This document shows positions 485 through 62,453 of a stretch of 64,000 nucleotides of DNA, one piece after another (position 1 is the stretch's first letter; each line of letters starts with the position of its first letter). A model generated the notes under the pieces. That model saw nothing but the letters and a program-made list of their open reading frames with translations, was not told the origin of the DNA and searched no databases. Position numbers and translations under genes: made by a program. The stretch covers positions 160,026 to 224,025 of the forward strand of contig CAWGRW010000010.1 in NCBI GenBank assembly GCA_963825135.1, written 5' to 3'. The DNA comes from an uncultured bacterium (lineage in GTDB: Bacteria > Desulfobacterota_D > UBA1144 > Nemesobacterales > UBA2774).

Positions 485-830
485 CCCCGACATTACAGAA
501 TTTGCGGCGGGTGAGCACCCGCGGGCATATGATCTCAAGCATCTCCTCTCCTGTCATTTCGACCAACGGGAGAAATCTGTCTTCTCCTCTCCCGACATTA
601 CAGAATTTGCGTGAAGAAAATCGATTGTACGAGCGTTAAAAATCTTCCACGGGGTGGGGTTGAATTGGAAGATTTAGCGAGTACATGAGATTTTTAGCAT
701 AATTCTGTAGTCGGATGATTTTTGCTTCTTTGTATCCAGACAAAGAAGAAAATAATATTGTCTTAGCCTTTCACCTTTCTTTTGTCTTCCCGAAAGATCA
801 CACCGCGTGTGCCTTTTCCCTCCCTTTCGA
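485..830 (+). repeat. Composite repeat cluster 1 (long hairpin at 592-714)
   Basis: CCGACATTACAGAATTTGCG...AATTCTGTAGTCGG plus shared modules. Confidence 0.9.
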
Positions 831-851
831 AAAGCGCGGAGCGGCAGCGCA

Positions 852-1670
852 TCAAACGAAAATCCCCCTCTCCCTGTTCCTCCTCCTGATCTCGGCCAGG
901 ACCGGGTCGGTCTCGGGCTCACCAGCCTCACCAGCCCGCTCCTCTTCCCGCCCGCTCCGGAGCGACTCGATCAGCCGGCGGACCCGCCTCCTGTTCTCCT
1001 CCGACCACTCCTCCCATTCGGGCTTCTCGAACCGCGTCTCGCGCCTGGCCCTCTCCTCTTCCTCCCTCTCGCGGCACGCCCTCATCCGCCGCCAGTCGTA
1101 CGTCACCCCGTCCTTCGTGCCCGAGGCGCAGTAATCGTCGTTCCCCTCCATGCCGAAGCACGCCCTGAAGTACTCGTACATCGGGGAGAACCCCTCCTCC
1201 GAATCCCCGTACTCCCGCCGCCACCAGGCGAAGCTCTGCCTGTAGAATATGCTGTCTTTCCCACATATATCGGATATATATTTCTGCGAGTACCCGCATT
1301 TCGTCAGGTACGCAGTGCACCGCGCCCAGAAATTATCGAACGCGTTTGTGAGCCTCGCCCTCTCCTCCGCGCGCCTCAGTATGTAGTAGAGGTGCCTGAA
1401 CGCCTCGAGGAAGCGGTCGAGCGTCCTCTCGGACCTGAGCACCGGGAAAAACTCCCTCTCGCCGGGCTTTATGAAATCCGCGAAGGGGTCGATCCCCTCG
1501 TAGAGCGCGAAGAGATTTTTGAGCGCCGCCTCCGCCTCGCTTCCTCCCGCCCCCCGGCTGAGAACCCGGCCCGTGTCCTTTGGAAGCGCGCTTTCGAGAA
1601 AGTCCAGCGCCTCCCTGAGCAGCCTCTTCTGCCTCGGCGTAGTATCCCCGCCCGTATACGATTTCTTCAT
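852..1670 (-). CDS. Hypothetical phage-like protein (start could be 1994)
   Basis: Long ORF 852-2036 with GC3-rich codons from MKKSYT onward; the upstream extension is made of palindromic repeats. Confidence 0.65.
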   Translation of the reverse strand: MKKSYTGGDTTPRQKRLLREALDFLESALPKDTGRVLSRGAGGSEAEAALKNLFALYEGIDPFADFIKPGEREFFPVLRSERTLDRFLEAFRHLYYILRRAEERARLTNAFDNFWARCTAYLTKCGYSQKYISDICGKDSIFYRQSFAWWRREYGDSEEGFSPMYEYFRACFGMEGNDDYCASGTKDGVTYDWRRMRACREREEEERARRETRFEKPEWEEWSEENRRRVRRLIESLRSGREEERAGEAGEPETDPVLAEIRRRNRERGIFV

Positions 1671-1881
1671 TCCGCCGACTATCGCAGGAGCGGATTCCAG
1701 CCGCGATGATACATCGCTTCGCCCTGAACTTGTCGCTCGTCCCATAGTTTTATTCCCCTCTCCCCGGTCCAGAGGGAGAGGGTTCGGGTGAGGGGGTACC
1801 TTATTTTCACTTAAAAATTCTTCCTGATGCGCGTACCCCGCGCCGACCTCGGACTCCTTCCCCGCTCCGCAGCCCGGACCC

Positions 1882-3288
1882 TCAACCCCTCTTGCGGCTG
1901 ACCGCGCGGCTCCCGTCCGGAAGCGCCCGCCTTCGTGAGGCGCTCTCGATACCCCTGAGCTCCCCGTAAACTCTCTCGATCTTTTCGTTTGCATCTTGTC
2001 CCTCCCGCAATTTATCCGTGAAGCTGATCCGCACATCCGTCCCGCCGCGCTCCGCCGCCGCGGCCCCTCCCGGCCCGTCCCTCACGCCGCCCTGCCGCAT
2101 CTTCCGCAGGTGCCACTCGACCGACTGCGCCTGGCTCGCGAGGAGGCATATGTCGGGCGGTTTGTGAATCCACCCGAATACGCCCCCTTCCATCTGCGAG
2201 CCGAGCATGAACGCGGCCCCTTCGCCCGCGAGGTCGTAGATCTCCCCGGGCGGCATCTCCGGGTTCAGCTCGCGGAGCCTCCTGAAATAGGTCTCGGCCG
2301 ATTTGTACTCCCGGCCGCCCGTGAGCGCCGGCTGCCCCGCCGCGCTTTCGTAAAGCCCCCTGAAAACCTCGTTATACCACCTCGAATGCGAGTACCCGCC
2401 GGCCCCTCTCTTACTGTCATTGCGAGGGAGCGCTTTCGACGCGACCGCGGCAATCTCTTGCGAAGAATCCGCACTCACACTCGATCTCCTCGTGTCATCA
2501 CTACCCTCAATCATTTCCTCACCCTCCCCCGTAATGGGACCACGGGGGCCCCGCCCCGCCCGCGCAAGGTGGATTTGACCGGCCTTACCTTCCTTGATCA
2601 CGGCATCGCCTTCGCGAGCCTGATTGCGGTCATTGCGCGGAGCCTCCTGATAAGGCCCCCCGGTCTCCCGTATAAAGCCGTAATTCATTCCCCCCGCGCC
2701 TCTCCTTATTCCCCTCCCGTCCGCTTCTCCCTCATTCACGTTCGCTGAAAAATCCGCGCCCCCCGGCAAGCCCGCGTTCTTTGCGGGCGTGTTCTCACTC
2801 TCGTCTCCGTATATAAACTCTTCTCTTGTATTGGGGGGGACGGATTGTACACCCACGTAGGGGACATTTTCTTCCCCCACAGTGGGGGACATTTTTTTCA
2901 TCATCGTCCTCAGCTTTCTCACCAGAGGGTCTACGCTGAATACGACTCCCCTGGTTCTGCCGTTCCCGTGAAGGCTCACCTTCCGCCTGAGGAGCCCCTT
3001 CTTCTCGAGCGAGGTCAGGAGCCTTCTTACCGACCTCTCGTTCATCCCGCTCACCTCGGTCAGGTGCTTGTACGGGTTCATCGTCCCGCTGAACGAGTAA
3101 TAGTCCACATAGTCGAGCAATATGGTATATTCGTTATTGGTGATGCCGAGCTCGGCGCGCCTGAGCCTGAGCGCCCTCGGCACGCGCATGAACCCCTTCT
3201 CCGTAATCAGACTCTCCCAGTTCTCCCCGCTCATCTCAGTCTCAGTCTCCGTCTCAGTTTCAGTCCCGTCGGCATTAGCACTCGTCAT
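1882..3288 (-). CDS. Phage/plasmid replication initiator-like protein with N-terminal winged HTH (DnaD/HTH_36-like)
   Basis: GF.RVPR.L....ELGITNNEYTILL...HLTEVSGMNERSVRRLLTSLEKKGLLRR, then a low-complexity linker. Confidence 0.65.
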   Translation of the reverse strand: MTSANADGTETETETETEMSGENWESLITEKGFMRVPRALRLRRAELGITNNEYTILLDYVDYYSFSGTMNPYKHLTEVSGMNERSVRRLLTSLEKKGLLRRKVSLHGNGRTRGVVFSVDPLVRKLRTMMKKMSPTVGEENVPYVGVQSVPPNTREEFIYGDESENTPAKNAGLPGGADFSANVNEGEADGRGIRRGAGGMNYGFIRETGGPYQEAPRNDRNQAREGDAVIKEGKAGQIHLARAGRGPRGPITGEGEEMIEGSDDTRRSSVSADSSQEIAAVASKALPRNDSKRGAGGYSHSRWYNEVFRGLYESAAGQPALTGGREYKSAETYFRRLRELNPEMPPGEIYDLAGEGAAFMLGSQMEGGVFGWIHKPPDICLLASQAQSVEWHLRKMRQGGVRDGPGGAAAAERGGTDVRISFTDKLREGQDANEKIERVYGELRGIESASRRRALPDGSRAVSRKRG

Positions 3289-3747
3289 CCGCTGCGATTC
3301 CTTCCGGCCTCTTCCGCCCAAACCGGCAGCCAAACCCGTTCGTCCTTAACCCGCCTGCCCTGAGCCCGTCGAAGGGTCGAAGGATTGAACGGGTCATACT
3401 CCCGTATGTACGCGATAACTTTCCGCCCTCTCAACAGCTCCCCCATCCTCTCCCGCCCCCTTCCCTATATATATAAGAGGTCCCGGCGCCCCGGCCCGGC
3501 CAGGGGACTGGCAGCCGGAGCATCTCCGGGACCGTCTCTGTAGGAGTGCAGCCCCGGCTTTCCCTTCGCACAAGAAGGAAGGATTGCAAGCGAGCACGCA
3601 ATCGGCCGCTCTTGACTACATGCAAGCCCATTATTCACCGCGCGTCAGTCACGTATACGGCTGAGCGCAAGCAAGCCCGTTATTCATCGCGCAAGAGTCC
3701 CTAATATAGAATTGCGGGAAAGCCGGAGCGGTTGGCCTCAGCCCGGC

Positions 3748-4017
3748 TCACCTCTTCGTGAACTCGAGCAAATTATTATTGCGCCCGGCCCCGGGCTCGA
3801 CCGACTCCTCTATCGCGCGCTCGTACACGCGCTTTAGCTCCCCGATCTCCACGTCGACCGCCCTGCAGTCGTACCCCGCCTCGGTCTCCATGCACGCCGT
3901 GACCGTCACGTTCCGCGCCTCGTCCCTCTCGAACGCCCTCCCCAGGTGCCACGTCATGTACAGGAACCCGAACCCGAGAACCGCGTAACTCATGTACCTA
4001 AGAACCGAATACTTCAT
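3748..4017 (-). CDS. Small membrane-anchored hypothetical protein
   Basis: GGAGG RBS, N-terminal TM segment. Confidence 0.7.
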   Translation of the reverse strand: MKYSVLRYMSYAVLGFGFLYMTWHLGRAFERDEARNVTVTACMETEAGYDCRAVDVEIGELKRVYERAIEESVEPGAGRNNNLLEFTKR

Positions 4018-4052
4018 GACCGCCTCCCATTAATTTATTTGTCATTTCGAAC

Positions 4053-4139
4053 AACGGTTCTGAACGTGTGCAAGAACCGGACACCGATCACTGATTCCAA
4101 ATAAATCCATTAGTCCTTGTATCTCATCAGCACAAACCA
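4053..4139 (+). mobile_element. AAC-hairpin-GGWC element in a GTCATTTCGA..GAGAAATCT host
   Basis: AAC GGTTCT gaacgtgtgca AGAACC GGAC...CCA. Confidence 0.7.
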
Positions 4140-4209
4140 AAACGTGAGAAATCTTTTTTTTTCTTCTTTTTTAATCTGTCATTGCGAGCAACGCGAAGCA
4201 ATCTCGCCT

Positions 4210-4932
4210 TCATCCTTTAATTCCCTCCTTAGAAAAAGGAGGGCTAGGGAGGATTTTCTTATCTATTTTTAAATCCCCCTCATCATCCCCCCCCTTGTCC
4301 AGCACCGCCCAGAACCCGCCGTCCTTTAGCCCGGCCACCACGTCCGGATGAGTCTCCTTCATCCTGAGCGTCTCTATCAGCTCCACAGGGTTGAGCCCGT
4401 CCGCCGCGACGTACCCCGAAAACGTCTGCCCCCTCTTTTTGAGCTCCTTCTCGAACCTGAGAAGGTTCAGGTACCCGTACTTCCTCAAAGCCTCTTCCAC
4501 GGGCCTGCTCTTCGCCCCCTCCACGTAAATCACCATCTTCGTCGATGCCGGGCTCACCCCGTGCGAAGCCGCGAAATTCTCTATGCTCCCCCACTCCCCG
4601 ATTATCTGCTGCGTCGTTATGTGCTCTATCCGTCCCATCAGTTGAATTCTCTCCTCTCCGTCGTTAGCAACTCCGACCGATTCCTTGCTCGCTCGGAATC
4701 GTTGCTCTATCCGTCCCATCAATCCCATTCTCTCCTCTGTTTCATTAGCAATGGCGTCCGGTTCGTTTTGTTTTCTGCCGCCGCTGAGCCAGACATTTGC
4801 ATTGATGTACCCAGCGTGGGGCGTCCGGCTGTTCGCCCGCTCACAACCGTTGCTCGCTCGCAACCGTTGCTCTATCCGTCCCATCAGACTCCATTGACTC
4901 CTTATTAATTCCGTCATCATAATTTCCGTCAT
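4210..4932 (-). CDS. Cro/Ner-like DNA-binding protein, divergent from CI; start uncertain
   Basis: Two tandem HTH-like units (QIIGEWGSIENFAASHGVS / ELKKRGQTFSGYVAADGLN); N-terminal LMGRIE repeats. Confidence 0.5.
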   Translation of the reverse strand: MTEIMMTELIRSQWSLMGRIEQRLRASNGCERANSRTPHAGYINANVWLSGGRKQNEPDAIANETEERMGLMGRIEQRFRASKESVGVANDGEERIQLMGRIEHITTQQIIGEWGSIENFAASHGVSPASTKMVIYVEGAKSRPVEEALRKYGYLNLLRFEKELKKRGQTFSGYVAADGLNPVELIETLRMKETHPDVVAGLKDGGFWAVLDKGGDDEGDLKIDKKILPSPPFSKEGIKG

Positions 4933-5165
4933 CTTTCCTAAATTGTAGGAGCGGCATCTTGCCGCTTCTTTTAATTCCCTCCTTTCGTAAAGGAGGGTCA
5001 GGGTCTATTTCCCTTTCCTTCTTTTAACCATCATCCTGAGCCTGTCGAAGGATGTCATCTCTCCCTTTCACTCCCATTCCCCGCCTCATCTCCCCTCATC
5101 TTCATTCCCGCCCTTTTATCATCCATTTCAACCGTTCTCCCAATTTCGCGACCATTCCACTTGCA

Positions 5166-5269
5166 ATTCACAGTATTGTGTATTAATATTGCTATTGTCA
5201 TATTGTCTATGTATATTATATTCACAGAACTGTGAATCTGTCAATAGGAAAATTCACAGAATTGTGAAA
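5166..5269. promoter_or_regulatory. Three palindromic operators ATTCACAG-NN-(C/T)TGTG(A/T)A at 5166-5183, 5220-5237 and 5252-5269
   Basis: Directly visible 18-bp palindromes between the divergent HTH genes. Confidence 0.75.
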
Positions 5270-5281
5270 TAGGGGGTAAAA

Positions 5282-5926
5282 GTGGATCACAATAACGAAA
5301 TCGGGCAGAGGCTCAAACTCGTAAGAGAGGCGCTCGACTTGACGCAGGAGGAATTCGGCAAGGGCATAGGCAAATCCCTCAACACCATCCTCAGCTGGGA
5401 GTCCGGCCGCACGCGCCCGCCCGACCATTTCCTGAAGGTCATAGAGAAGATATACGGCATAAGCCCGAAGTGGCTACGCCGCGGCCAGGGGGATATGTTC
5501 CTCCCTGATATATCGTCTGTCTTCGGCGGGGACAGCCTCGTCGAGATCAAGATATGGGAGCTGGCCGGCGCGGGGAACCCGCTCGCGTCTCCCGACGCCG
5601 AGCCTATAGAGCGCGTCACGCTGCCGTCGAAGCTGGTGCGGAACTACACGAACGGGTTCAGGGTCGAGGGGGACAGCATGTACCCCACCATCGTCAACGG
5701 CGCTTACGTGGGCTTTGACCCGAACGACAAGAAGATCGTGAGTAACGGGATATACTGCCTCCATCTGCCGTACGAGGGCTACGTCGTCAAGCGCGTCGAG
5801 ATCAAGCCCAACGAGATCATCATCAAGAGCGATAACCAGATGGTCGACGACTACTCCGTCCCTCTCGACGAGCTCGACCGGAACCTCATCGTCGGCCGCG
5901 TGAGATGGGTGTTCCAGAATGTGTAA
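5282..5926 (+). CDS. Phage CI-like repressor (HTH_3 + S24 autopeptidase)
   Basis: LTQEEFGKGIGKSLNTILSWESG HTH; AG cleavage site; VEGDSMYP Ser motif; VVKR Lys. Confidence 0.9.
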   Translation: MDHNNEIGQRLKLVREALDLTQEEFGKGIGKSLNTILSWESGRTRPPDHFLKVIEKIYGISPKWLRRGQGDMFLPDISSVFGGDSLVEIKIWELAGAGNPLASPDAEPIERVTLPSKLVRNYTNGFRVEGDSMYPTIVNGAYVGFDPNDKKIVSNGIYCLHLPYEGYVVKRVEIKPNEIIIKSDNQMVDDYSVPLDELDRNLIVGRVRWVFQNV

Positions 5927-6026
5927 TGGGGGGGGAAAATCCTAAAATTACCGCAAGATAATGAGCATAATAGCAAATTTCCCCCTTTAAATGCTTCTGT
6001 AATTTTGTTAGAATATATATAAGAAC

Positions 6027-6776: not shown

Positions 6777-6802
6777 CTTTCTCTATTTATTCACAATAGA
6801 CA

Positions 6803-7910: not shown

Positions 7911-7923
7911 GGGGATATTATGG

Positions 7924-8868: not shown

Positions 8869-9209
8869 ATCAGTCACCCTGAACTAGTTTCAGGGTCTCG
8901 TTTTTACTAGTTCACTGTCCCCAAAACCGTACGAACAAAAATCAAAAGGATATGAAAACTTGAAGTCACAAATCGTGATTTCGAGATCATGATACAATAC
9001 AAGATCCTGAATCGAGTTCAGGATGACAAAAAATTGGAGGTCACAAATTGTGTCCTCCAATCATCTAACTGCCTGATATATATCTCCCGAAATCCCGCGC
9101 CGAATCATAGCGATTACTCGCTAATGGCGAAATTCCGCCATGTGAGATTTTGCGGCTGCGTTCTTCCTAACCCTCCGTCATCACTAATATTTATCGCATC
9201 CATGCAATC

Positions 9210-9225: not shown

Positions 9226-9264
9226 CCCTTATATCTTAAAATACGTTACAAGGAGATTAGCAAC

Positions 9265-9531: not shown

Positions 9532-9594
9532 GCGGCCTGCCCCGATTGTTAATACACGTTTAACGAATATTCTATCGTCAAAGGAGACACTATC

Positions 9595-10153: not shown

Positions 10154-10744
10154 GTTAAGGGTGGGGGTGTACCTTATTATTTCTATATTATTTCTGTCAT
10201 TCCCGACACCGATCGGGAATCTAGTCTTTTAAATCCCCCTAAATCCCCCTTTACAAAGGGGGAAAACAATATTTCCAGATTTTAATTCCCTCCTTTAGCA
10301 AAGGAGGGTTAGGGAGGATTTAGCTTTTTCTTATCCCCGCGACATTACAGAATTTGCGGCACACAATGTGTGCTCATACTACGATCCTTCCGTAACTCCT
10401 CTGCCATCGCCGGGTAATTAGCCAAACCCGTTCGTGCTGAGCCAGTCGAAGCACGTTACCCGACATTACAGAATTTGCGTATAGAAAATCGATTGTACGA
10501 GCGTTAAGAATCTTACGTGGGATGGGGTGGGATCGGAAGATTTAGCGAGTACATGAGATTTTTAGCAAATTATGTAGTCGGATGATTTTTGCTTCTTTTC
10601 ATCAAGGAAAAGAAGGATAAATAAAACAGCCTTTCACCTTTCCTTTGTCTTTTCGAATGTTCACACTACGTGTGTGCTTCTTTTCATCAAGGAAAAGAAG
10701 AGAATAATATATTGCCTTCGTTTTATTTTAAATCCCCCTGAATC

Positions 10745-13450: not shown

Positions 13451-13475
13451 AAAGGGAGCTTCGGCTCCCTTTTTT
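13451..13475 (+). terminator. Rho-independent terminator GGGAGCTTCGGCTCCC-T6
   Basis: Hairpin plus U-tract; same hairpin at 14446-14470 and 14991-15014. Confidence 0.85.
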
Positions 13476-13494
13476 GTTTATCCGCCGCCTTCCC

Positions 13495-13990
13495 CTTCAT
13501 CCCGGGCGCACACGAAGCGTGCTGTCGAAGGGTATATCCCAATCCTGTCATTTCGAGGTGAAGGCGAGAAATCTATCTTTTGTCTTTTCTTCCCGACATT
13601 ACAGAATTTGCGGCACACGAATGCGTGCTGCATATACGATTCTTCCGAATCTCCTCTGCCATCGCCAGGCAATGTAGCCGCAACCCGTTCACCCCGAGCG
13701 CGTCGAAGGGCGGTAATCTTATCTCCCTCCCCCCTTGAGGGGGAGGGTATGGGTGGGGGTTTACCTTAGTCCCACAATCAATCCAGAAGGTCTTTCCTTC
13801 CCGACATTACAGAATTTGCGTTAAGAAAATCGCGTGTTTAAGCGTAAAGAAATCTTTGAGCAGTCCAATTGAAAGATTTTAGCTAAAACACAAGATTTTT
13901 AGCGTAATTCTGTAGTCGGAATGATTTTTGCTTCTTTTCATCAAGGAAAAGAAGGATAAATAAAACTAGCCTTTCACCTTCCTTTGCCTT
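13495..13990 (+). repeat. Composite repeat cluster 3 (variant B hairpin 13801-13919)
   Basis: Same arms, alternative inner stem. Confidence 0.9.
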
Positions 13991-14080
13991 TTCTCCCACT
14001 TCGAATGCCGCAAACTCAGCATTTTTATTCCTCGTCCGTTTATTGTATAATAGAGTCAATTATTAACGGAGGGTAAGAAT

Positions 14081-18300: not shown

Positions 18301-18993
18301 CGGGACCCGGGCTTTGAGCCCGGGAGCTCCGTGATGCTCTCCGTAAGCGATACCGGACACGGGATGGACGAGGCGACGCTGTCGCAAATCTTCGACCCCT
18401 TCTTCACGATGAAAGAGATCGGAAAAGGGACCGGGCTCGGCCTCGCGACCGTCCACGGGATAATCAATCAGAGCGGCGGACGCGTCACGGTCGACAGCGG
18501 GATGGACAAGGGCACGACGTTTAGAATATATCTCCCCGCGGTCGAGGGGCTTCCCGAAGAAGCCCGGGACAGTATCACGGCGGTGGGGAACGCAGAGGGA
18601 GGACCGGAAACCATACTTATTGCCGAAGACCAGAACGAGGTGCTGTCCCTGGTCAGTCTGGTATTGGAAGAAGCGGGACATAACGTGCTCGAAGCGAATA
18701 ATAGCGATGCGGCGATCCTGACCTGTGAGCGGCACAAAGAACCGATCGACCTGCTGCTGATCGATGTCGTTATGCCGCATATGAGCGGACCCGAGCTCGC
18801 CAGGCGTCTGACGGCGCTTCACCCCGAGATGAAAGTCCTCTACATGTCGGGCTACATCGATAGCACGATCGATGAATACGGCGTCTTCTCCAACGGAAGG
18901 TCTTTCCTGCAGAAACCTTTCACGCCCTCAGTCCTCCTCGGCAAAGTGCGCGAAGTGCTGAACGCACCTCTTGCACGGACGGGCGGCGGGTGA
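15346..18993 (+). CDS. Multi-PAS/GAF hybrid sensor histidine kinase-response regulator, split by frameshifts near 15965 and 16810
   Basis: PAS/PAC repeats, GAF, AGGIAHDFNNLL H-box, GTGLGL G2 box, REC DVVMP...LQKPF. Confidence 0.9.
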
Positions 18994-19440
18994 GCACCCG
19001 CGGGCGTACGATCTCGAGCATCTCCTTTCCTGTCATTTCGAACAACAGTTGCAAGCGTGCGCGCAACTGGTCGACGTTGGTTGATTGCAAGTAACTCAAA
19101 TTGACACCGTACACGATCTGCACAATCCAAAACGAGACATCTGTCTTTTGCCTTTGGTATTAATTCCCTCCTTAGAAAAAGGAGGGCAAGGGAGGATTGG
19201 GGTGTTACCTTCCGTTCGTACTGAATCCAGCGAAGCACTTTTCTTCCCCGACATTACAGAATTTGCGTTAAGAAAACCGATTGTACGAGCGTTAAGAATC
19301 TTACGCGGGGTGGGGCGGAATCGGAAGATTTAGCGAGTACATGAGATTTTTAGCACAATTCTGTAGTCGGATGATTTTTGCTTCTTTTCATCAAGGAAAA
19401 GAAGGATCAATCAAATAGCCTTTCTCCTTCCTTTTGTCTT
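18985..19440 (+). repeat. Composite repeat cluster 4 (hairpin 19248-19370)
   Basis: First module overlaps the kinase stop codon. Confidence 0.9.
19044..19129 (+). mobile_element. AAC-hairpin-GGWC element
   Basis: AAC AGTTGC aagcgtgcgc GCAACT GGTC...CCA. Confidence 0.72.
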
Positions 19441-19534
19441 TCTCTCCCTTGCATCGAATGCCGCAAATGCAGAGCGGAACCCCGCCTTTTCCCCGATCTG
19501 CATGTATAATTCTACGGAGGAGAAAACCCCGCCG

Positions 19535-20125: not shown

Positions 20126-20139
20126 AAAATTCGGCCGCG

Positions 20140-20900
20140 CGCACGCACACGCACGTAGCGCGTTTCTATGATCCTTCCGAAACTCCTACGCTCAAACCGG
20201 CAATCATGGCGTTTTCGTATGTCGGCGGCGACACCGCCCCGTTCACCCCGAGCGCACACGATGCGCGTCGAAGGGTTTTCCCTTCAATTCGTCCCTTAAA
20301 AAAGGGGGATTAGGGGGATTTAGTCTTTTCTTCCCCGACATTACAGAATTTGCGGCACACAATGTGTGCTCATATACCCCTTCCGGATCTCCTCCATATA
20401 GCCGGCAACGAAGCCCAACCCGTTCACCCTGAGCGCGTCGAAGGGCACATTATCCGTCATTTCGAGCAGCGCGAGAAATCTATCTTTTGCCTTTTCTTTT
20501 GCCTTTCCCCCCGACATTACAGAATTTGCGTTAAGAAAATCGCTTGTTTAAGCGTTAAGAAATCTTTGAGCAGTCCAATTGAAAGATTTTAGCTTAAACA
20601 CAAGATTTTTAGCACAATTCTGTAGTCGGATGATTTTTGCTTCTTTTCATCAAGGAAAAGAAGGATAAAAAAACAGCCTTTGTCTTGTCCTTCCTTAGTC
20701 TTGTCTTTTCGAATGATCACACTACGTGTGTGTGTCGCGGCTGGAAGCCGCTCCTACAAGTGATTGTAAACGCAGCATCGCTAAAAAAAAGCCCCTTTCC
20801 TCCATCCCGGAAGAAAGGGGCAACTTTGAAGTCACCCTGAACCGGTTTCAGGGTCCCGCTTTTCTTTTCTGTCATTCCCGTGAGCTTCCATCGGGAATCT
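20140..20900 (+). repeat. Composite repeat cluster 5 (variant B hairpin 20511-20629)
   Basis: Shared modules. Confidence 0.9.
20735..20757 (-). repeat. GTAG-type REP (GTAGGAGCGGCTTCCAGCCGCGA); others at 4945 (+), 37661 (-), 53332 (+)
   Basis: GTAG tetranucleotide followed by GCGGC/GCCGC hairpin. Confidence 0.7.
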
Positions 20901-24774: not shown

Positions 24775-25650
24775 GCACACACACACGTAGTGTGTTTCTA
24801 TGATCCTTCCCGACCCCCTCAGCTCAAACCGGCAATCATGGCGTTTTCGTATGTCGGCGGCGACACGCCGCCCCGTTCACCCCGAGCGCACACGTAGCGC
24901 GCTGTCGAAGGGTCTTCCTTAATTCCCTCCCCCTTGAGGGGAGAGGGTGAAGGGTGAGGGTGTACCTAGATATGTAAACCCGTTCACCCTGAGCCCGTCG
25001 AAGGGTCATCCTTAATTCCCTCCCCCTGGGGGGGAGGGTTAGGGTGGAGGTGTATTTCGAGCAGCGCGAGAAATTATTTTTGCTTTTTTCACCGAGAAAA
25101 GAATTGGTTAAAAAAACGCTGTTTCACGTAACGATACCTTCGAACAGACCAATGTGAAAGGTTTTAGCATAAACACAAGATTCTTAGGATACGGAGTCGG
25201 AGTTTTCGCCCCTTTTCATCAAGGAGGAGGATAAAAAAAGATCCGTGCACCGCTCTTCGACTTTGATTGTCATTGCGATAAATCACATTGCGCTTGGTCG
25301 CCCTGGAAGCCGCTACTACGTTAACGTCAGCATTGCAAGCTGCATAGCAGCGCGGCAATCTCGCCTTTTCTTTCCCGACATTACAGAATTTGCGTCACAT
25401 TGTTTCCCTCCCCCTTCCCAAGGGGGAGGGTGTGGGTGGGGGTTTACCTTATCAGCCTATCAATCCAGAGAGTCTTTCTCTTTCCAGGCGTAAAGAAATC
25501 TTTGAGCAGTCCAATTGAAAGATTTTAGCTTAAACACAAGATTTTTAGCACAATTCTGTAGAGTCTTTTCGGAAACCACACTACGTGTGTGATTTTTGCT
25601 TCTTTTCATCAAGGAAAAGAAGGATAAATAAATGGTTTTTCACCTTTCCT
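24775..25650 (+). repeat. Composite repeat cluster 6 (degenerate copy 25092-25200; split copy 25375-25561)
   Basis: Shared modules. Confidence 0.88.
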
Positions 25651-25732
25651 TCGTCTTTTCCTATCTTCCCTTATCCTCTCGAAAGAGACAACGAAGGACC
25701 CGGCACTCCCGCCCGCCCCCCCGGATACGCCG

Positions 25733-28033: not shown

Positions 28034-28069
28034 CGCTGTGAAACGCAGCACGGCAAACTCGTCTTTCCT

Positions 28070-28700
28070 TCCCGACATTACACAATTTGCGGCAGGCACA
28101 CACAATGTGTGTCTCTACGATTCTTCCGTAACTCCTCAGCTCAACCAACAAGCGAAGCCAAACCCGTTCGTGCTGAGCTTGTCGAAGCACGTTACCGACA
28201 TTACAGAATTTGCGGCGGGTAAGCACCCGCGGGCATACGATCTCTAACATCCGCCTCAGCTCAACCCAACCCGTTCACCCTGAGCGCACACGAAGTGTGC
28301 TGTCGAAGGGTCCTCCTTAATTCCCTCCCCCTCAATAGGAGGGGGGAGGGTCAAGGGTGGGGGTGTACCTTAATCATTCTGTCATTGCGAGCAAAGCGAA
28401 GCAATCTCGCCTTTTCTTCCCCGACATTACAGAATTTGCGTCAAGAAAATCGCGTGTTTAAGCGTAAAGAAATCTTTGAGCAGTCCAATTGAAAGATTTT
28501 AGCTTAAACACAAGATTTTTAGCAAATTATGTAGTCGGAATGATTTTTGCTTCTTTTCATCAAGGAAAAGAAGAGATCAATTTCGCCTTTGCCTTTGCTT
28601 TTTCTTTGTCTTTTCGAAAGACCACACTACGTGTGTTCATCAAGGAAAAGAAGGATTAATCAAATAGCCTTTCACCTTTCTTCGTCATTGCGAGCCCTCC
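28070..28700 (+). repeat. Composite repeat cluster 7 (variant B hairpin 28421-28538)
   Basis: Shared modules; solo left arms at ~28072 and ~28195. Confidence 0.9.
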
Positions 28701-29464: not shown

Positions 29465-30145
29465 CGACACACAGACACATAGTGTCATTTTACGATCCTT
29501 CCGTGACTCCTACGCTCAAACCAGCAACGAAGCCCAACCCGTTCGTCCTGAGCGCACACGAAGTGTGCTGTCGAAGGGTCTCTTCCCTTCAATTTCCCCC
29601 TTAGAAAAAGGGGAACAATTTCGAACGAGTGAGGAATTGGTCGGAGATGATTAAATGCAAAGGACTTTCTTAATTGAAGTGACACTTTTGTCAAACCAGA
29701 TTAAGGGGGATTTAGTTTTTTCTTTTTCCCCGACATTACAGAATTTACGGCGGGTGAGCACCCGCAGGCATACGATCTCAAGCATCTCCTTTCCTGTCAT
29801 TTCGACCAACATGGAGAAATCTAGTCTTTCTGCCTTTTCTTCCCGACATTACAGAATTTGCGTTAAGAAAATCGATTGTACGAGCGTTAAGAATCTTACA
29901 CGGGGTGGGGTGGAATTGGAAGATTTAGCGAGTACATGAGATTTTTAGCACAATTCTGTAGTCGGATGATTTTTGCTTCTTTTCATCAAGGAAAAGAAGG
30001 ATTAAAACAACCAGTCTTTTACCTTTCTTTGTCTTTTCATTAAACACACTACGTGTGGATCTGCGGCCCTGGAATACCTCCTCCGCTCAACCCGGCAACG
30101 AAGCCCAACCCGTTCGTCCTGAGCGAATTCAAAGGATCGAAGGGT
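29465..30145 (+). repeat. Composite repeat cluster 8 (hairpin 29843-29965)
   Basis: Shared modules. Confidence 0.9.
29614..29698 (+). mobile_element. AAC-hairpin-GGWC element (85 nt)
   Basis: Clean insertion relative to the empty host at 49121-49167; 74/85 identical to 10745-10829. Confidence 0.8.
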
Positions 30146-31883: not shown

Positions 31884-31889
31884 TTCGCG

Positions 31890-32410
31890 CGCACACACAA
31901 TGTGTGTCTCTACGATTCTAGTGGAACTCCTTAGCCCGACCAATAATTTCCCTCCCCCGCAAGGGGGAGGATTAAGGGTGGGGGTGTACCTCAATATTTT
32001 TGTCATTGCAATGGTTCTGATGAATAAGAAGAACCGGTCGCTGCTGGCTGATTGCATTCAAGTTGCTATGCCATGGGACGAACCTGCCAAATAAAATCTG
32101 TGAGCGAAGCGAAGCAATCTCGTCTTTTTCTTCCCCGACATTACAGAATTTGCGTAAAGAAAATCGATTGTACGAGCGTTAAGAATCTTCCACGGGGTGG
32201 GGTTGAATTGGAAGATTTAGCGAGTACATGAGATTTTTAGCACAATTCTGTAGAGTCTTTTCGGAAACCACACTACGTGTGTGATTTTTGCTTCTTTTCA
32301 TCAAGGAAAAGAAGGAATTAAATTAGCCTTTGTCTTGTCCTTCCTTAGTCGTGTCTTTTCGAAAGAGCACACTACGTGTGTTCATCAAGGAAAAGAAGGA
32401 TAATATATTC
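31890..32410 (+). repeat. Composite repeat cluster 9 (hairpin 32135-32253)
   Basis: Shared modules. Confidence 0.9.
32010..32101 (+). mobile_element. AAT-hairpin-GGWC element (92 nt)
   Basis: Splits GTCATTGC|GAGCGAAGCGAAGCAATCT; empty host at 28381-28407. Confidence 0.78.
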
Positions 32411-32571
32411 GCCTTTTCTTTTTATTTATCTTCCTCAAAAGAGCAGGCAAAGCGCGGCAATCCCGTATTTTCCTCCCCCCATTTCCCATATACCTCCAAC
32501 TAAGGTTATAATTGTTTATCGTTATATTTTCCTGATAATCCAAATCGCACTCTCTTAACGGAGGATAGTAC

Positions 32572-34185: not shown

Positions 34186-34189
34186 TGCG

Positions 34190-34750
34190 CGCGCACGCAC
34201 ACGCACGTAGTGCGTTTCTACGATTCTAGTGGACCTCCTTAGCCCGACCAATAATTTCCCTTCCCCCGCAAGGGGGAGGATTAAGGGTGGGGGTGTTACC
34301 TTAGTGTTCTTATCAATTCAGAAATTCTTTTTCTTCCCGACATTACAGAATTTGCGTTAAGAAAATCGATTGTGCGAGCGTTAAGAATCTTACGGGAACG
34401 AATGCAAGCGAGCGCGCATTCGGACACCCTCTCCTATCCGCACGACGTTAGTTAGCCACGGACATCGCTAAGCTATTGCTCCGATTGGGGCTGAATTGGA
34501 AGATTTAGCGAGCACATGAGATTTTTAGCAAATTATGTAGTCGGATGATTTTTGCTTCTTTTCATCAAGGAAAAGAAGGATAAATAAAACAGCCTTTCAC
34601 CTTTCTTTGTCTTTTCCGTGTCTTTTCGGAAACCACACTACGTGTGTGATTTTTGCTTCTTCTCATCTAGGAAAAGAAGGATAAATAAAACCAGCATTTC
34701 TCCATTCCTTTGTCTTTTCTTTGCTTTTCCCCGACATTACAGAATCTGCG
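34190..34750 (+). repeat. Composite repeat cluster 10 (hairpin 34337-34544 with loop insertion)
   Basis: Shared modules. Confidence 0.9.
34397..34485 (+). mobile_element. AAC-hairpin-GGWC element in the loop of the long hairpin
   Basis: AAC GAATGC aagcgagcgc GCATTC GGAC. Confidence 0.75.
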
Positions 34751-37259: not shown

Positions 37260-37685
37260 CTCACACACATTGTGTGTTTTTACGATCCTGTCGAAACTCC
37301 TCTGCCATCGCCAGGCAATTAGCGCAACCCGTTCACCCCGAGCCCGTCGAAGGGTTCTTCCTTAATTCCCTCCCCCTTGAGGGGGGAGGGTACGGGTGGG
37401 GGTGTTACCTTAGTGTTCTTATCAATTCAGAAATTCTTTTTCTTCCCGACATTACAGAATTTGCGTGAAGAAAATCGATTGTACGAGCGTTAAGAATCTT
37501 ACGCGGGGTGGGGTGGAATCGGAAGATTTAGCGAGTACACGAGATTTTTAGCAAATTATGTAGTCGGATGATTTTTGCTTCTTTTCATCAAGGAAAAGAA
37601 GGATAAATAAATAGCCTTTCACCTTTCTTTTGTCTTTCCGAAAGACCACACTACGTGTGTGTCGCGGCTGGAAGCCGCTCCTACG
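37260..37685 (+). repeat. Composite repeat cluster 11 (hairpin 37446-37567)
   Basis: Shared modules. Confidence 0.9.
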
Positions 37686-40034: not shown

Positions 40035-40735
40035 GCGCACACCTACGCTCGTATACGATTCTGCGAACTCCTCCGCTGCGCCGCTATCTCGTATGTCAGC
40101 CGCGACTCGCCGCTCCGTTCGTCCTGAGGCACACAATGTGTGCTCATATACGATCCTCCCGTAACTCCTCTGCCATCGCCGGGGAAGAGCCAAACCCGTT
40201 CGAGCTGAGCTTCTCGAAGCACGTTACCGACATTACAGAATTTGCGGCGGGTGAGCACCCGCAGGCATACGATCTCAAGCATCTCCTTTCCTGTCATTTC
40301 GAACGCATGTGAGAAATCTGTCTTTCGTCTTTCATCTTCCCGACATTACAGAATTTGCGTATAAGAAAATCGATTGTACGAGCGTTAAAAATCTTACGCG
40401 GGGTGGGGTGGAATTGGAAGATTTAGCGAGTACATGAGATTTTTAGCACAATTCTGTAGTCGGATGATTTTTGCTTCTTTTCATCAAGGAAAAGAAGGAT
40501 ATAAAAAATAGCCTTTGTCTTGTCCTTCCTCAGTCTTGTCTTTTCGGAAACCACACTACGTGTGTGATTTTTGCTTCTTTGTATCCAGACAAAGAAGAAA
40601 ATAATATTGTCTTTGCTTTTTCTTTGTCTTTTCGAAAGTTCACACTATGTGTGTGCTTCTTTTCATCCCTGTCCTGAATTCATTTCAGGAAAGGAAAAGA
40701 AGGATAAAAAAAACAGCCTTTCACCTTTCTTTGTC
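40035..40735 (+). repeat. Composite repeat cluster 12 (hairpin 40340-40463)
   Basis: Shared modules. Confidence 0.9.
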
Positions 40736-48979: not shown

Positions 48980-49670
48980 ATTTCCCTCCCCCTCCCAGGG
49001 GGAGGGTGCACACAATGTGTGCTCATGTACGATCCTTCCGTAATTCCTCCGCTATCGCCGGGGAATTAGCCAAACCCGTTCGTGCTGAGCGCACGCGAAG
49101 TGTGCTGTCGAAGGGTCTCTTCCCTTCAATTTCCCCCTTAGAAAAAGGGGGATTAAGGGGGATTTAGTCTTTTCTTTTTCCCAGACATTACAGAATTTGC
49201 GGAGGGTGAGCACCCGCGGGCATACGATCTCTCCCTCCCCCTCCGCTCAACCTGGCGTGTCATTGCAACGATTGCGAGCTAGTAAGCAATCGGTCGCCCT
49301 CCGCAAAACGCAAGCAAGCTACTGTGCCATGGGAAGGACAGACTATATACAAATCTGCTTCGCAGAAGCCGCGGCAATCTCATGAATAAAGCGAGATCGC
49401 CACGACCACACTACGGTCTCGCGATGACAGAAAAAGGGGTGGGGTAGAATCGGAAGATTTAGCGAGTACATGAGATTTTTAGCAAATTCTGTAGAGTCTT
49501 TTCGGAAACCACACTACGTGTGTGATTTTTGCTTCTTTTCATCAAGGAAAAGAAGGATAAAAAAAACAGCCTTTCGCCTTTCTTTGTCTTTGCTCTGTCT
49601 TTTCGAAAGATCACACTACGTGTGTTCATCAAGGAAAAGAAGGATAAAAAAAACATCCTTTCACCTTTCT
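48980..49670 (+). repeat. Composite repeat cluster 13 (split hairpin 49181-49494)
   Basis: Left and right arms separated by other modules. Confidence 0.88.
49267..49357 (+). mobile_element. AAC-hairpin-GGWC element
   Basis: GTCATTGC|AAC GATTGC gagctagtaa GCAATC GGTC. Confidence 0.72.
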
Positions 49671-49813
49671 TTTGTCTCTCTTCTCGACCGCAAAAAAAGC
49701 CCCTTTCCTCCGCCCCTCTTCTCATTTACGCCCGGTTTGTAATATACTATATGGATGAATTATCCCTCCGCCGGCTGCGCGCCGGACGCGGGGGGAAGGT
49801 GCGGAGGGAGGAC

Positions 49814-50139: not shown

Positions 50140-50860
50140 CACGCGCGCAGCACACAATGTGTGTCTCTACGATTCTTCCGTAACTCCTCCGCTCAACCAA
50201 CAAGCGAAGCCAAACCCATTCGCGCTGAGCGCACACGAAGTGTGCTGTCGAAGGGCACATCCCAATCCTGTCATTTCGAGCAGCGCGAGAAATCCATCTT
50301 TTGCCTTTGCTTTTGTTTTTCCCCGACATTACAGAATTTGCGGCGGGTAAGCACCCGCGGGCATACGATCTCAAGCATCCACATAAGCTCGACCCAACTC
50401 GGTCGCCCTGTACTCTTAATTCCTTCCCCCTGGAGGGGGAACTGCTTCGAGCAAGCGAGAAGTAGGACGCCCTGACCCTTTAGCCACTTGGGTAACTGTG
50501 ACCATGCTCTCCGATTTGTCGAGCATGTGGTGAGGATGGGGGTGTCACCTTTCACTCATTCAATAATCCGGTAAGTTTTTCTCTTCCCCGACATTACAGA
50601 ATTTGCGTATAGAAAATCGATTGTACGAGCGTTAAAAATCTTCCACGGGGTGGGGTTGAATTGGAAGATTTAGCGAGTACATGAGATTTTTAGCAAATTA
50701 TGTAGTCGGATGATTTTTGCTTCTTTGTATCCAGACAAAGAAGGAAATAATATTGTCTTAGCCTTTGCCTTTTCTTTGCCTTTTCTTTTTCGAATGATCA
50801 CGCTACGTATGTTCATCAAGGAAAAGAAGGATGAAAAAAACATCCTTTCACCTTTCTTTG
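50140..50860 (+). repeat. Composite repeat cluster 14 (hairpin 50588-50709)
   Basis: Shared modules. Confidence 0.9.
50440..50528 (+). mobile_element. AAC-hairpin-GGWC element
   Basis: AAC TGCTTC gagcaagcga GAAGTA GGAC. Confidence 0.72.
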
Positions 50861-50877
50861 TCTTTCTTCCCGACCGC

Positions 50878-50917
50878 AAAAAAAGCCCCTTCCCTCCGCA
50901 ACGGAAGAAAGGGGCTC
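50878..50917 (-). terminator. Terminator for the 50978 gene; related hairpins at ~20783, ~22109, ~55414
   Basis: A7-GCCCCTT...AAGGGGGC. Confidence 0.65.
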
Positions 50918-53269: not shown

Positions 53270-53660
53270 GCGCCCACACACATAGTGTGTTCCACGATCC
53301 TAGTGCGGCTCCTCCACTTCTATCAACTAATGTAGGAGCGGCTTCCAGCCGCGATTCCTTTTATTCCCTCCTTTGTAAAGGAGGGTGAGGGAGGATTTTG
53401 CCTTTTTCCTTTCCCCGACATTACAGAATTTGCGTTAAGAAAATCGATTGTACGAGCGTTAAAAATCTTCCACGGGGTGGGGTTGAATTGGAAGATTTAG
53501 CGAGTACATGAGATTTTTAGCAAATTATGTAAAGTCGGATGATTTTTGCTTCTTTTCATCAAGGAAAAGAAGGATAAAAAAAACAGCCTTTGTCTTGTCC
53601 TTCCTTAGTCTTTTCTTTTCGAAAGACCACACTACGTGTGTTCATCAAGGAAAAGAAGTA
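53270..53660 (+). repeat. Composite repeat cluster 15 (hairpin 53415-53538)
   Basis: Shared modules. Confidence 0.9.
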
Positions 53661-55734: not shown

Positions 55735-55738
55735 GTAC

Positions 55739-56401: not shown

Positions 56402-56670
56402 TTGTCGTCCTCCGGGACCCGCATTGAAAAAATCTCGCGCGAGTCCATTTTTGTACCAATTACGGACGATTATACTATATATATTCGGAATATTATACAT
56501 TCCTGAAAAGAAAGGAGTCCTATTTGTCGATTCTCAGCCATTGCCGTTAGCAGAAGGCGTTAGCGCGTGAAGGTTAATGTCGTATCGATCGCGGCCCTCG
56601 ATTACCGTCGGAGACCCCCGCTTCCCCCGCCGCATCAACCCGACACGGCGTCGGGCATCCTCCGCCCCCC

Positions 56671-61790: not shown

Positions 61791-61802
61791 ACGATTGCGA
61801 GT

Positions 61803-61888
61803 AACGGTTCTGAGCAAGCGTAAGAACCGGTCGCTGTCGGCTGATTGCAATTCAGCAAGTTTTCTATCCACCAAGCCTGATGAATCCT
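61803..61888 (+). mobile_element. AAC-hairpin-GGWC element
   Basis: AAC GGTTCT gagcaagcgta AGAACC GGTC. Confidence 0.72.
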
Positions 61889-62170
61889 GCGACCGAAGCA
61901 GTCTTGGCTTTTTCTTCCCCCGACATTACAGAATTTGCGGCGGGAGAGCACCTGCGGTTATATGATCCTTCGAAGCTCTACGCTAAAGGAAACCTCGCCC
62001 AACCCGTTCACCCCGAGCGCACACGAAGTGCGCTGTCGAAGGGTCTCTTCCCTTCAATTCCCTCCTTAGAAAAAGGGGGATTAAGGGGGATTTAGTCTTT
62101 TCTTTTTCCCCGACATTACAGAATTTGCGTTAAGAAAATCGATTGTACGAGCGTTAAGAATCTTACGCGG

Positions 62171-62259
62171 GACGATTCCGAACTAGTAAGGAATCGGACG
62201 CCCTATCCTTATCAACAACTTCGGAATTATAATCACGCATCATTAACCTACATCACCAT
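62171..62259 (+). mobile_element. GAC-hairpin-GGWC element in the loop of the long hairpin
   Basis: GAC GATTCC gaactagtaa GGAATC GGAC...CCA. Confidence 0.72.
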
Positions 62260-62453
62260 GCGGGGCGGGATCGGAAGATTTAGCGAGTACATGAGATTTT
62301 TAGCAAATTATGTAGTCGGATGATTTTTGCTTCTTTTCATCAAGGAAAAGAAGGATAAAAAAAACAGCCTTTCACCTTTCTAGTCTTTTCATTATCTTTT
62401 CATAGACCACTTTAGGTGCACGGTGTTTTCATGATCCACACCCGGCAATCCCC

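Follow-up and report, generated by a model that had tools for sequence, protein, structure and literature searches.

Knowledge of intergenic repeats with a long palindromic or mosaic structure comes mainly from proteobacteria, in whose genomes they lie scattered in both orientations. Among them, the enterobacterial repetitive intergenic consensus elements, or intergenic repeat units (ERIC/IRU), are imperfect palindromes of ~127 bp that occupy intergenic sites, mostly near gene 3' ends, and have longer variants arising by insertion at a fixed site; their copies are dispersed genome-wide in both orientations. Repeated hairpins of another kind are found in integrons, where the core sites of attC follow the pattern RYYYAAC...GTTRRRY, with an AAC/GTT triplet and an R/L-box plan. 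Here we describe a family of ~120-nt hairpins, set in clusters of shorter modules, from a 64-kb stretch of DNA (the window) that forms the end of a 224-kb contig, C10, in the 3.13-Mb, 17-contig genome of an uncultured bacterium (labeled G000). With a probability of about one half, we take this family to be an undescribed, lineage-specific structured intergenic repeat of the kind represented by ERIC, bacterial interspersed mosaic elements (BIMEs) and Neisseria intergenic mosaic elements (NIMEs), copied and kept co-oriented by recombination and forming a slow cassette array without an integrase.

In shape the hairpin resembles ERIC/IRU: it is an imperfect palindrome of ~120 nt whose stem contains internal loops; it lies between genes, mostly next to their 3' ends; it evolves by compensatory change; and some copies carry an insert at a fixed site, here the apical loop. 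This is a likeness of shape and not of membership, drawn from the general features of ERIC and not from a comparison of sequences. The present repeat differs from ERIC/IRU in its near-restriction to one domain and to a single strand and in its fixed second hairpin and T-rich linker. With BIMEs and REPINs it shares an organization into intergenic, non-coding mosaics of short hairpin modules that keep a fixed order and are homogenized within a genome. The repetitive extragenic palindromes (REPs) of BIMEs, however, are 20–40 nt long and alternate in orientation within the BIME, whereas the unit here is a 120-nt hairpin, and the repeat-flanked gene for a Y1 transposase (REP-associated tyrosine transposase, RAYT) is absent. 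Sedentary chromosomal integrons, such as those with Vibrio cholerae repeats (VCRs), likewise have ~100 homogeneous, co-oriented repeats of ~120 nt that form hairpins between blocks of accessory genes, and their blocks too relocate with orientation kept; unlike them, the array described here has no integrase, has a GAC/GTC instead of an AAC/GTT core, lacks R/L-box geometry, holds operons and genes of both strands in its blocks, and is largely collinear between species. Neisseria mosaic elements with dRS3/NTS repeats also form arrays of oriented, GTCAT-tagged hairpins and longer repeats around accessory genes (PMC11893778). The 120-nt hairpin is nevertheless a different module from the NTS-like one, and strict domain-wide co-orientation is not described for Neisseria in the portions of PMC11893778 available to us. 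The anatomy of the unit is closest to the long palindromic repeats of ERIC/IRU and its organization closest to the mosaic arrays of BIMEs and NIMEs.

Structure of the repeat unit and its clusters

A preliminary description of the window had placed a hairpin of the form CCGAC-AT-TACAGAATT...AATTCTGTA-GTCGG at 16 sites, and all 16 were found to carry it, 14 in intact and 2 in disrupted form. A covariance model of the unit, R1, matched 14 of the 16 over their full length (E <= 1e-5). In the disrupted copies, at 25375 and 49181, the left arm is kept and is followed by foreign sequence, with the 3' half 110–250 nt further on. The 9-mer TACAGAATT (<=1 mismatch) occurs 51 times in the window against 8.9 expected. 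An 18-mer of the left arm (<=2 mismatches) occurs 27 times, 16 of these in hairpins and 11 as solo arms, and all 27 lie on the plus strand, in agreement with the ~11 solo arms counted earlier and with the earlier remark that minus-strand copies were absent from the window. No Rfam family, a match to which had been named beforehand as refuting, reached its gathering threshold in the window, and a permissive Rfam search (E <= 10) of one cluster returned only chance-level matches of 12–19 bits. No tRNA gene was found in the window. In the literature on Dadabacteria repeats and on co-oriented or lagging-strand intergenic hairpin repeats, as far as it was accessible to us, no paper on the hairpin family was found, and with no Rfam match either the family appears to be undescribed.

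The core unit is 166 nt long and consists of the ~120-nt imperfect hairpin, a T-rich linker and a second, small hairpin of 9 bp. The order of modules is a pyrimidine run, the 120-nt hairpin, ATGATTTTTG, the 9-bp hairpin (CTTCTTTTC...GAAAAGAAG), an A-run, a second pyrimidine-rich stretch and, in many cases, a mini-hairpin, CACACTACGTGTG. Upstream of the unit are variable modules, which include solo left arms fused to other small hairpins, CCGTTCACCCTGAGC...GTCGAAGGG, and GTCATT[GT]CGAGC...AATCT. Each cluster is a mosaic of 300–640 bp, and besides the unit at least eight other short modules take part, among them an NTS-like hairpin of the type that Ssn nucleases cleave. Within the long stem, GCGTTAAGAAAATC is present twice in the 5' arm and GATTT(TT)AGC twice in the 3' arm, and the stem therefore has two similar 5x1 internal loops. 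Both have their long side on the 5' arm, which also bears a 2-nt AT bulge, and the apical loop is G-rich. The bulge, reported at the outset as conserved, is constant within the genus but becomes a small internal loop in other genera. The hairpin ends read (Y)CCCGAC...GTCGGAT, with GAC/GTC in every intact copy; the terminal stem of other genera is GGGAC/GTCCC, ACGAC/GTCGT or GGCC.../...GGCC. The near-invariant T-rich linker TGATTTTTG starts 3 nt after the long stem in every bacterial family that has the unit and runs into the second hairpin, sharing bases with its 5' arm, and no comparable T-rich tract was found on the opposite strand. A 12-codon frame in the linker, read by eye, was rejected, as the hairpin variants preserve pairing and not the peptide.

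Fourteen copies, two of them in the window (34396–34480 and 62170–62255) and 12 elsewhere in the genome, carry an insert of 83–180 nt, always at the same position in the apical loop. The insert of ~83 nt exists in two sequence types, extends the fold and starts with a covarying mini-hairpin of its own (CGAATGC...GCATTCG or CGATTCC...GGAATCG). A copy whose loop holds an open reading frame (ORF), a search for which had been proposed, did not turn up: the inserts contain no ORF. In a congener (G009), the site orthologous to the copy at 34337, with the same S13 peptidase gene upstream, also has a hairpin split by an insert.

The compensatory changes of the preliminary description were all recovered, TGTAC/GTACA being replaced by TGTTT/AAACA and by TGTGC/GCACA, and AATCTTCC/GGAAGATT by AATCTTT/AAAGATT. 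RNAalifold analysis of 24 copies from 7 genera or species gave 41 pairs, of which 14 show compensatory changes, including pairs of the terminal stem (GGGAC/GTCCC, ACGAC/GTCGT) and of the second hairpin. Pairs were then counted over 104 copies from 41 sources, in an alignment that was fitted to the model and somewhat favors structure, and compared with 500 shuffles: 97.0% of cells were paired (shuffled, 90.1%), 22 of the 41 pairs had changed on both sides (11.7 +/- 1.6), and 245 cells were compensatory (62 +/- 9). None of the 500 shuffles reached any observed covariation value, and slid controls paired at 42–57%. G.T/T.G cells numbered 132 and A.C/C.A cells 20; without one constant G.T pair the numbers were 52 and 18 (p = 6e-5). 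Four copies folded as single-stranded DNA (ssDNA) had z-scores of -2.5 to -6.2 relative to shuffles on either strand, the plus strand folding slightly better in 4 of 4. Pairing is maintained on the plus strand, and that strand is under selection to fold. The asymmetric fold, the strong covariation, the G.T excess and the placement of loops and bulge on the 5' arm bear out the part of the earlier proposal that has one strand folding with extrahelical bases.

The clusters of the window are listed below in window coordinates. Their extents were taken from self-BLAST, the core units from R1 matches and the solo arms from the left-arm search.

474..811, plus strand: mosaic cluster 1; solo left arm at 487–506, core unit at 592–757 (R1, 201 bits)
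10230..10718, plus strand: mosaic cluster 2; solo left arm at ~10339, core unit at 10460–10624
13451..13995, plus strand: mosaic cluster 3; solo left arm at ~13593, core unit of variant B at 13801–13963
18983..19448, plus strand: mosaic cluster 4; core unit at 19248–19413
20136..20757, plus strand: mosaic cluster 5; solo left arm at ~20335, NTS-like GTCATT...AATCT hairpin at ~20456–20481, variant B core at 20511–20672
24871..25667, plus strand: mosaic cluster 6, disrupted; left arm at 25375–25395, unrelated insert, variant B 3' half at ~25484–25561, without the GTCGG end
28050..28691, plus strand: mosaic cluster 7; solo left arms at ~28072 and ~28195, core unit of variant B at 28421–28582
29470..30125, plus strand: mosaic cluster 8; solo left arm at ~29730, core unit at 29843–30008
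31886..32427, plus strand: mosaic cluster 9; core unit at 32135–32323, with the 3' terminal GTCGG replaced
34188..34750, plus strand: mosaic cluster 10; core unit at 34337–34587 with an apical-loop insert of ~85 nt, solo left arm at ~34731
37264..37684, plus strand: mosaic cluster 11; core unit at 37446–37610, breakpoint of synteny with G009 inside the cluster
40125..40735, plus strand: mosaic cluster 12; solo left arm at ~40227, core at 40340–40506, extra small-hairpin module at 40553–40606
49008..49685, plus strand: mosaic cluster 13, disrupted; left arm at 49181–49201, ~230 nt of other modules, 3' half at ~49435–49494
50147..50915, plus strand: mosaic cluster 14; solo left arm at ~50323, core unit at 50588–50752
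53331..53658, plus strand: mosaic cluster 15; core unit at 53415–53581
61822..62401, plus strand: mosaic cluster 16; solo left arm at ~61920, core at 62110–62362 with a loop insert of ~85 nt, breakpoint of synteny with G009 here

Distribution, synteny and turnover of the array

Across the genome, nhmmer gave 122 matches that merged to 103 elements. Contig C10 holds 54 on the plus strand and none on the minus strand, all at 69.5–224 kb, and contig C9 holds 24 and 3, respectively. On these two large contigs 78 of 81 elements are thus on the plus strand, nearly all within ~240 kb of assembled sequence; 17 of the 27 copies on C9 lie in its first 83 kb, and nhmmer found no copy between 0.43 and 2.45 Mb of C9. 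Seven small contigs, each with a single strand represented, account for the remaining 22 elements and are evidently array fragments that the assembly did not place. All other module families share the confinement and plus-strand orientation of the array, and a 20-mer of the left arm occurs 92 times on the plus and 0 times on the minus strand of C10 69–224 kb. About 90% of copies fall within one chromosomal domain, in which the clusters occupy most intergenic gaps.

BLAST with one cluster detected the repeat in 9/9 congeners and in 20/24 genomes of the bacterial family. Across the order, R1 detects it in 37 of the 101 genomes, with 26/32 positive within the family and further positives in five other families. 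R1-confirmed copies also occur in public metagenome-assembled genomes (MAGs) titled Candidatus Dadabacteria, Thermodesulfobacteriota and 'uncultured delta proteobacterium'; the 17-mer scan of public contigs was unspecific, most of its 122 loci being single chance matches, and only multi-match, R1-confirmed records were used. One-strand arrays were seen in the congeners as well: all plus in G009:C9 (110 kb), all minus in G007:C5 (62 kb) and all minus in G003:C2 (100 kb).

The arrays are largely collinear between species, with genes 70–93% identical, and all 108 of the non-overlapping BLAST blocks between the G000 array and the three congeners keep one orientation. Four comparisons gave 18 adjacency breaks; a hairpin lies in the gap at 16 of the 18, compared with 52 of the 86 gaps without a break (Fisher p = 0.028). 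One block (C10 94.96–97.03 kb) is displaced by ~8 kb and another (C10 143.8–145.5 kb) by ~60 kb in both G003 and G007, the slot vacated by the latter holding a hairpin in G000, and one G000/G009 breakpoint was mapped inside window cluster 11. It had been asked at the outset whether gene blocks between repeats are shuffled as units in relatives, and this is what was observed: blocks have moved with orientation kept, and most breaks are at hairpins. Relative to G011, a genome of another genus, gene order is much more scrambled.

A hairpin is present at 15/19 orthologous gaps in G007, 13/19 in G009 and 7/21 in G003, and the gaps without one contain other modules or are shorter. The best match of a hairpin was its orthologous copy in only 2 of 12 cases. 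Identity was 0.79–0.87 between orthologues and 0.79–0.88 between non-orthologues, with a mean of 0.894 among G000 paralogues; paralogues are closer than orthologues, and the replacement or conversion of copies inside a genome therefore outpaces the divergence of species.

These data fit best a selfish or semi-domesticated repeat that, in this bacterial family, has taken over a single domain of the chromosome, by a process in which a dedicated integrase or HUH transposase would not be the mover of copies. Instead, neighboring clusters may exchange copies by homology-driven recombination, that is, by gene conversion or by exchange between direct repeats of an unequal or circle-mediated kind. An array of this sort would stay co-oriented because homologous recombination copies orientation. 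The same recombination would homogenize the copies within a genome, and at the repeats it would allow gene blocks to leave, return, multiply or disappear while keeping their direction. Copies in inverted orientation would lead to inversions, and selection probably removes them. The hairpin itself is kept by selection on its folded plus strand, the most plausible role being that of a long-stem terminator or 3'-end structure in transcripts, a role that REP, ERIC and Correia elements also have.

Several points weigh against a recombination-maintained repeat. The enrichment of hairpins at breaks is modest, since 60% of all gaps hold one, the covariation counts come from the model-fitted alignment noted above, and the gene calls used for the neighborhood comparisons below come from a simple codon-score caller and are crude. 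In the plus array of G011, 2 of 12 matched genes are inverted while the hairpins are not, and polarity is therefore preserved by the element itself and not by the transfer of blocks alone. Also in G011, hairpin orientation flips with GC skew, a pattern that fits a polarity set by replication, and the only gene matched in the minus array of that genome is uninverted relative to G000 (its counterpart there lies outside the array, to its left, at C10 22.7 kb), which, as a single BLAST match, speaks weakly against a simple inversion. About one third of copies are antisense to the upstream gene. Finally, recombination between direct repeats does not explain how the first copy in each gap was seeded, nor does it explain the constant C-rich sense strand in the bacterial family.

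Polarity and alternative explanations

The polarity of the array might instead be that of replication, with the unit serving as the ssDNA substrate of a strand-specific enzyme that works at the fork, much as IS200/IS605, RAYT or Ssn proteins do. A new copy would then be inserted, or would persist, in one orientation only with respect to the movement of the fork. We regard this as unlikely, although it has more in its favor than the explanations that follow. In G000, dnaA is at C9 1.05 Mb, cumulative GC skew has its minimum at ~1.2–1.3 Mb and its maximum at ~2.25 Mb, and at the left edge of the array (C10 ~69 kb) the skew changes from slightly positive to strongly negative. The octamers most skewed to the leading strand chromosome-wide are GGGCAGGG, GGGGAGGG and GGGAAGGG, which we take to be forms of GGGNAGGG resembling the FtsK-orienting polar sequences (KOPS). 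Their polarity is minus-rich throughout C10 and in C9 0–1.15 Mb and 2.4–2.79 Mb, and plus-rich in C9 1.3–2.4 Mb. All copies in G000 lie in one replichore, where the sense strand has the lagging-strand sense; three copies there are reversed. The other replichore has no copy, hence no flip is to be seen there. In G003, G007 and G009 the sense strand is likewise opposite to the GGGNAGGG-rich strand, as expected from synteny.

Two side observations concern the octamers. The purine/pyrimidine-rich modules of the array were rejected as carriers of the polar octamer, since their typical motifs (GAAAAGAAG, GGAAGAAAAG and GGGGTGGGG) are rare or unskewed outside the array. The octamer switches of G000 fall at ~C9 1.2 and 2.4 Mb, compared with a GC-skew peak at ~2.25 Mb and a further skew change at C10 ~60 kb; the two signals disagree over several hundred kilobases, as they do in G011 (2.04 vs 2.25 Mb).

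G014, assembled as one contig, has ~13 of its 18 copies at 2.08–2.25 Mb on the minus strand, in the lagging-strand sense, with isolated copies split ~3 to 3–4 in orientation; its octamer count puts the switch at 2.42–2.56 Mb, and GC skew from twenty 20-kb samples was too noisy. G011 has 39 plus copies at 2.320–2.500 Mb, 8 minus copies at 2.225–2.251 Mb and one minus copy at 569 kb. Its GC skew changes from positive to negative at ~2.25 Mb, close to the point opposite dnaA (dnaA at 0.99 Mb, antipode at 2.34 Mb), and the flip in hairpin orientation at this skew switch favors a replication-set polarity; the octamer switch comes earlier, at ~2.04 Mb, leaving fork direction over the minus array uncertain. 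In G036, from another family, the units are solitary, lack the partner modules and are spread over several large contigs, and among 15 high-scoring copies the sense strand is locally C-rich in 8 and G-rich in 7. Polarity is a property of the arrays of this bacterial family and not of the unit as such. Mapping against GC skew, as the preliminary description had advised, thus gave a flip with skew in G011 and a C-rich sense strand within the family but no relationship in G036; the random orientation elsewhere that it had named as a refutation is seen in this relative (8 vs 7) and not in G000.

A candidate enzyme for such a process is suggested by the Ssn proteins, small GIY-YIG enzymes that bind an oriented NTS hairpin (CGTCATTCCC...GGGAATC) as ssDNA only. 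They cut only one strand, a few nucleotides upstream of the hairpin, and their genes are often hairpin-flanked (Chenal et al. 2025, PMC11893778). The sole PF01541 match in G000 is a 105-aa single-domain GIY-YIG ORF at C9:191.9 kb (56 bits), whose closest solved relatives are UPF0213 proteins. Hairpins of the form GTCATTTCGAG...GAGAAATCT enclose it, one inverted pair to the left and one to the right, with a 57-nt direct repeat outside them (C9:191,620–192,420), and an isolated 166-nt unit lies 2.4 kb downstream of this element, at C9:194,545. The locus has the NTS-ssn-NTS layout for the GTCATT...AATCT module and not for the 120-nt hairpin. The GTCATT...AATCT hairpin is itself a cluster module, often directly upstream of the pyrimidine run and long hairpin, and is found 37 times on the plus and once on the minus strand of the array; outside the array it shows no polarity. 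The degenerate SRM pattern of PMC11893778 had 16 matches in the genome, none of them on the plus strand of C10 69–224 kb; those in array regions were one on the minus strand of C10 69–224 kb and one on the plus strand of C9 0–83 kb. With a single query, GIY-YIG homologues were found in 38 of the 101 genomes of the order: 26 genomes have both the protein and the hairpin unit, 12 the protein only, and 11 the unit only, among them the array-bearing G011 and G014. Arrays exist in these two genomes with no GIY-YIG homologue found, and the nuclease is therefore not required for an array.

The asymmetric fold and an orientation that ignores flanking genes in about one third of cases would also suit an enzyme at the fork. 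Against it stand the 8-to-7 split in G036, the mixed isolated copies of G014, the three G000 copies reversed within their replichore, the unpolarized NTS-like hairpins outside the array, the disagreement between octamer and skew switches in G011 and the 11 of 37 hairpin-bearing genomes in which no GIY-YIG homologue was found. Nor do Y1 transposases fill the role: Y1_Tnp (PF01797) had no match in G000 and matched in only 5/33 family genomes, and R1 at the five Y1 loci gave only two weak matches (16.8 and 9.7 bits), both at one locus. The link to HUH elements raised earlier is thereby not supported, the transposases being sporadic and not flanked by the hairpin.

Polarity could also be a matter of transcription. 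As a one-way, long-stem terminator or 3'-end stabilizer acting at the RNA level, every copy in the arrays would halt plus-strand transcription, whose direction in this domain is head-on to replication, and the array would insulate a gene-dense accessory domain from head-on read-through; as the main explanation we consider this rather improbable. A search of sequencing runs for the sequence gave 20 of the DNA type and none of RNA. The U-rich tract that the linker would give 3 nt after the hairpin, found in every family and on one strand only, argues for it, as do the preference for G.U over A.C and the lagging-strand sense of the plus strand by both GC skew and KOPS-like polarity. Gene neighborhoods count on both sides. 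In the window 15 of 16 hairpins follow a plus gene, as had been described, but over the 103 elements of the genome the upstream gene is co-oriented in only 66, opposite in 31 and undetermined in 6. The co-oriented share, 66/97, compares with 43% plus genes in the array (p = 9e-7), an excess and not a rule; in G036 the upstream gene is co-oriented for 10 of 15 copies. Elements lie between tandem plus genes in 33 cases, convergent genes in 31, tandem minus genes in 20 and divergent genes in 11, the divergent-promoter arrangement being the rarest (11/95 in G000, 1/15 in G036). Pfam-supported minus-strand genes (corA/ppa and a MacAB-type operon) flank plus elements, and since all four arrangements occur as well, polarity is independent of the flanking genes. 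For a terminator, the 31 of 97 copies without a co-oriented upstream gene, some of them between well-supported minus-strand genes, are difficult to accommodate. A consensus scan for promoters and terminators picked out small CACAC hairpins only, with the long hairpin not above shuffled expectation; the U-tract shares nucleotides with the second hairpin, in its 5' arm, and orientation in G036 is unrelated to skew.

A bolder and distinctly doubtful proposal is that the arrays are an integrase-free platform for directional block exchange, at which a candidate enzyme would read the bulge, the two 5x1 loops and the G-rich loop of one DNA strand in step with replication, with blocks leaving and re-entering the array in one orientation only. 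If true, the integron principle would have been invented a second time and independently, in Dadabacteria.

It is very unlikely that the clusters are cis sites of a chromosome-organizing or replication system, such as domain markers or fork-pausing or translocase-orienting elements. About 90% of copies do lie in one domain, whose left edge is at the GC-skew change, and the two opposite arrays of G011 flank a skew switch. As a precedent, the RRS elements of Escherichia coli are structured, positioned repeats reported to affect replisome passage (PMC10592627). On the other side, the units of G036 are dispersed, occupancy of orthologous gaps varies between species, and KOPS-like polarity is borne by ordinary octamers chromosome-wide and not by the units. 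We know of no binding protein for the hairpin clusters.

The resemblance of the hairpin ends to attC, noted in the preliminary description, led to no integron. With the IntI model TIGR02249 the best score in G000 was 88 bits against a cut-off of 265, and none of 24 other family genomes exceeded the cut-off; of 41 genomes searched, only G040 and G029 did, both from other families of the order. No tyrosine recombinase (PF00589) was found inside the array, all matches being elsewhere on C9, and no transposase or recombinase was found among the 65 ORFs of the window and 63 further ORFs of the array. G029 has a complete integron (C1:303,000–323,000), with an IntI of 428 bits and canonical attC-like repeats of 60–70 nt (GCCTAAC...GTTAG) spaced 0.5–4.6 kb apart. 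Within the 52 kb that surround IntI in G029 and G040, R1 had no match at E <= 1, and true attC sites of a relative are thus not recognized by the model. Blocks between the repeats are 1–9 kb long and hold operons and genes on both strands. The hairpin family is not an integron, and it is not a REP/RAYT system. An integron-like cassette array, or a cluster of attC sites lacking an integrase (CALIN) with its integrase lost, the hairpins being divergent attC with GAC/GTC for AAC/GTT, is extremely improbable: co-oriented, homogeneous hairpins of long-attC size downstream of plus genes in the window, heterogeneous accessory-like genes, blocks that move with orientation kept, the fit of CCCGAC...GTCGGAT to RYYYAAC...GTTRRRY save for the central base pair, and IntI in other families of the order are outweighed by the lack of IntI in G000 and 24 family genomes, the dissimilar attC of G029, the operons and both-strand genes (ppa, corA) in the blocks, collinear arrays, the single, genome-wide units of G036 in both orientations, and a 2-nt bulge with two 5x1 loops in place of R/L boxes.

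Genes of the array and significance

The ORFs of the window and of the rest of the array are ordinary and accessory genes, including ppa, corA, a MacAB-OEP operon, a type III polyketide synthase operon, S13 peptidases, IPTL-CTERM proteins and others. Window positions 4000–10100 are low in GC (~45–48% vs ~55% elsewhere) and encode a LexA-like HTH-S24 repressor (5282–5926), a DUF5131 gene (6027–6776) and ORFs without a Pfam match; this block, inside one inter-repeat interval, is probably acquired DNA, for example a prophage remnant. Tandem paralogues of an S13 D-Ala-D-Ala carboxypeptidase lie at 30255–31883 and 32572–34185 of the window, with a repeat cluster after each, and more copies of the gene are at the start of C9 (2.2–6.7 kb). 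The tandem pair looks like a duplication by unequal exchange between clusters. Four small IPTL-CTERM proteins are encoded at 12829–14962 and 55739–56500 of the window; three are adjacent and split by a repeat cluster. At C10:146,400–158,700, ten minus-strand ORFs of 137–186 aa without Pfam matches run among plus-strand hairpin clusters, and no counterpart of >=600 bp to this run was found in G003 or G007. At the array's left boundary (C10 68.2–69.4 kb), three ORFs on the minus strand also had no Pfam match.

In this lineage, then, a deeply conserved, covarying hairpin has filled one domain of the chromosome of an uncultured phylum in a single orientation. A practical consequence is that the repeats break short-read assemblies of the MAGs that bear them, the small contigs of G000 being pieces of the array. 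The family offers a test case for how orphan repeats without a transposase spread and stay uniform, and for whether plain direct repeats can give cassette-like plasticity without a dedicated recombinase. The contrast between this bacterial family, with its arrays and skew-following polarity, and G036, with solitary and unpolarized units, provides a handle on the cause of the polarity.

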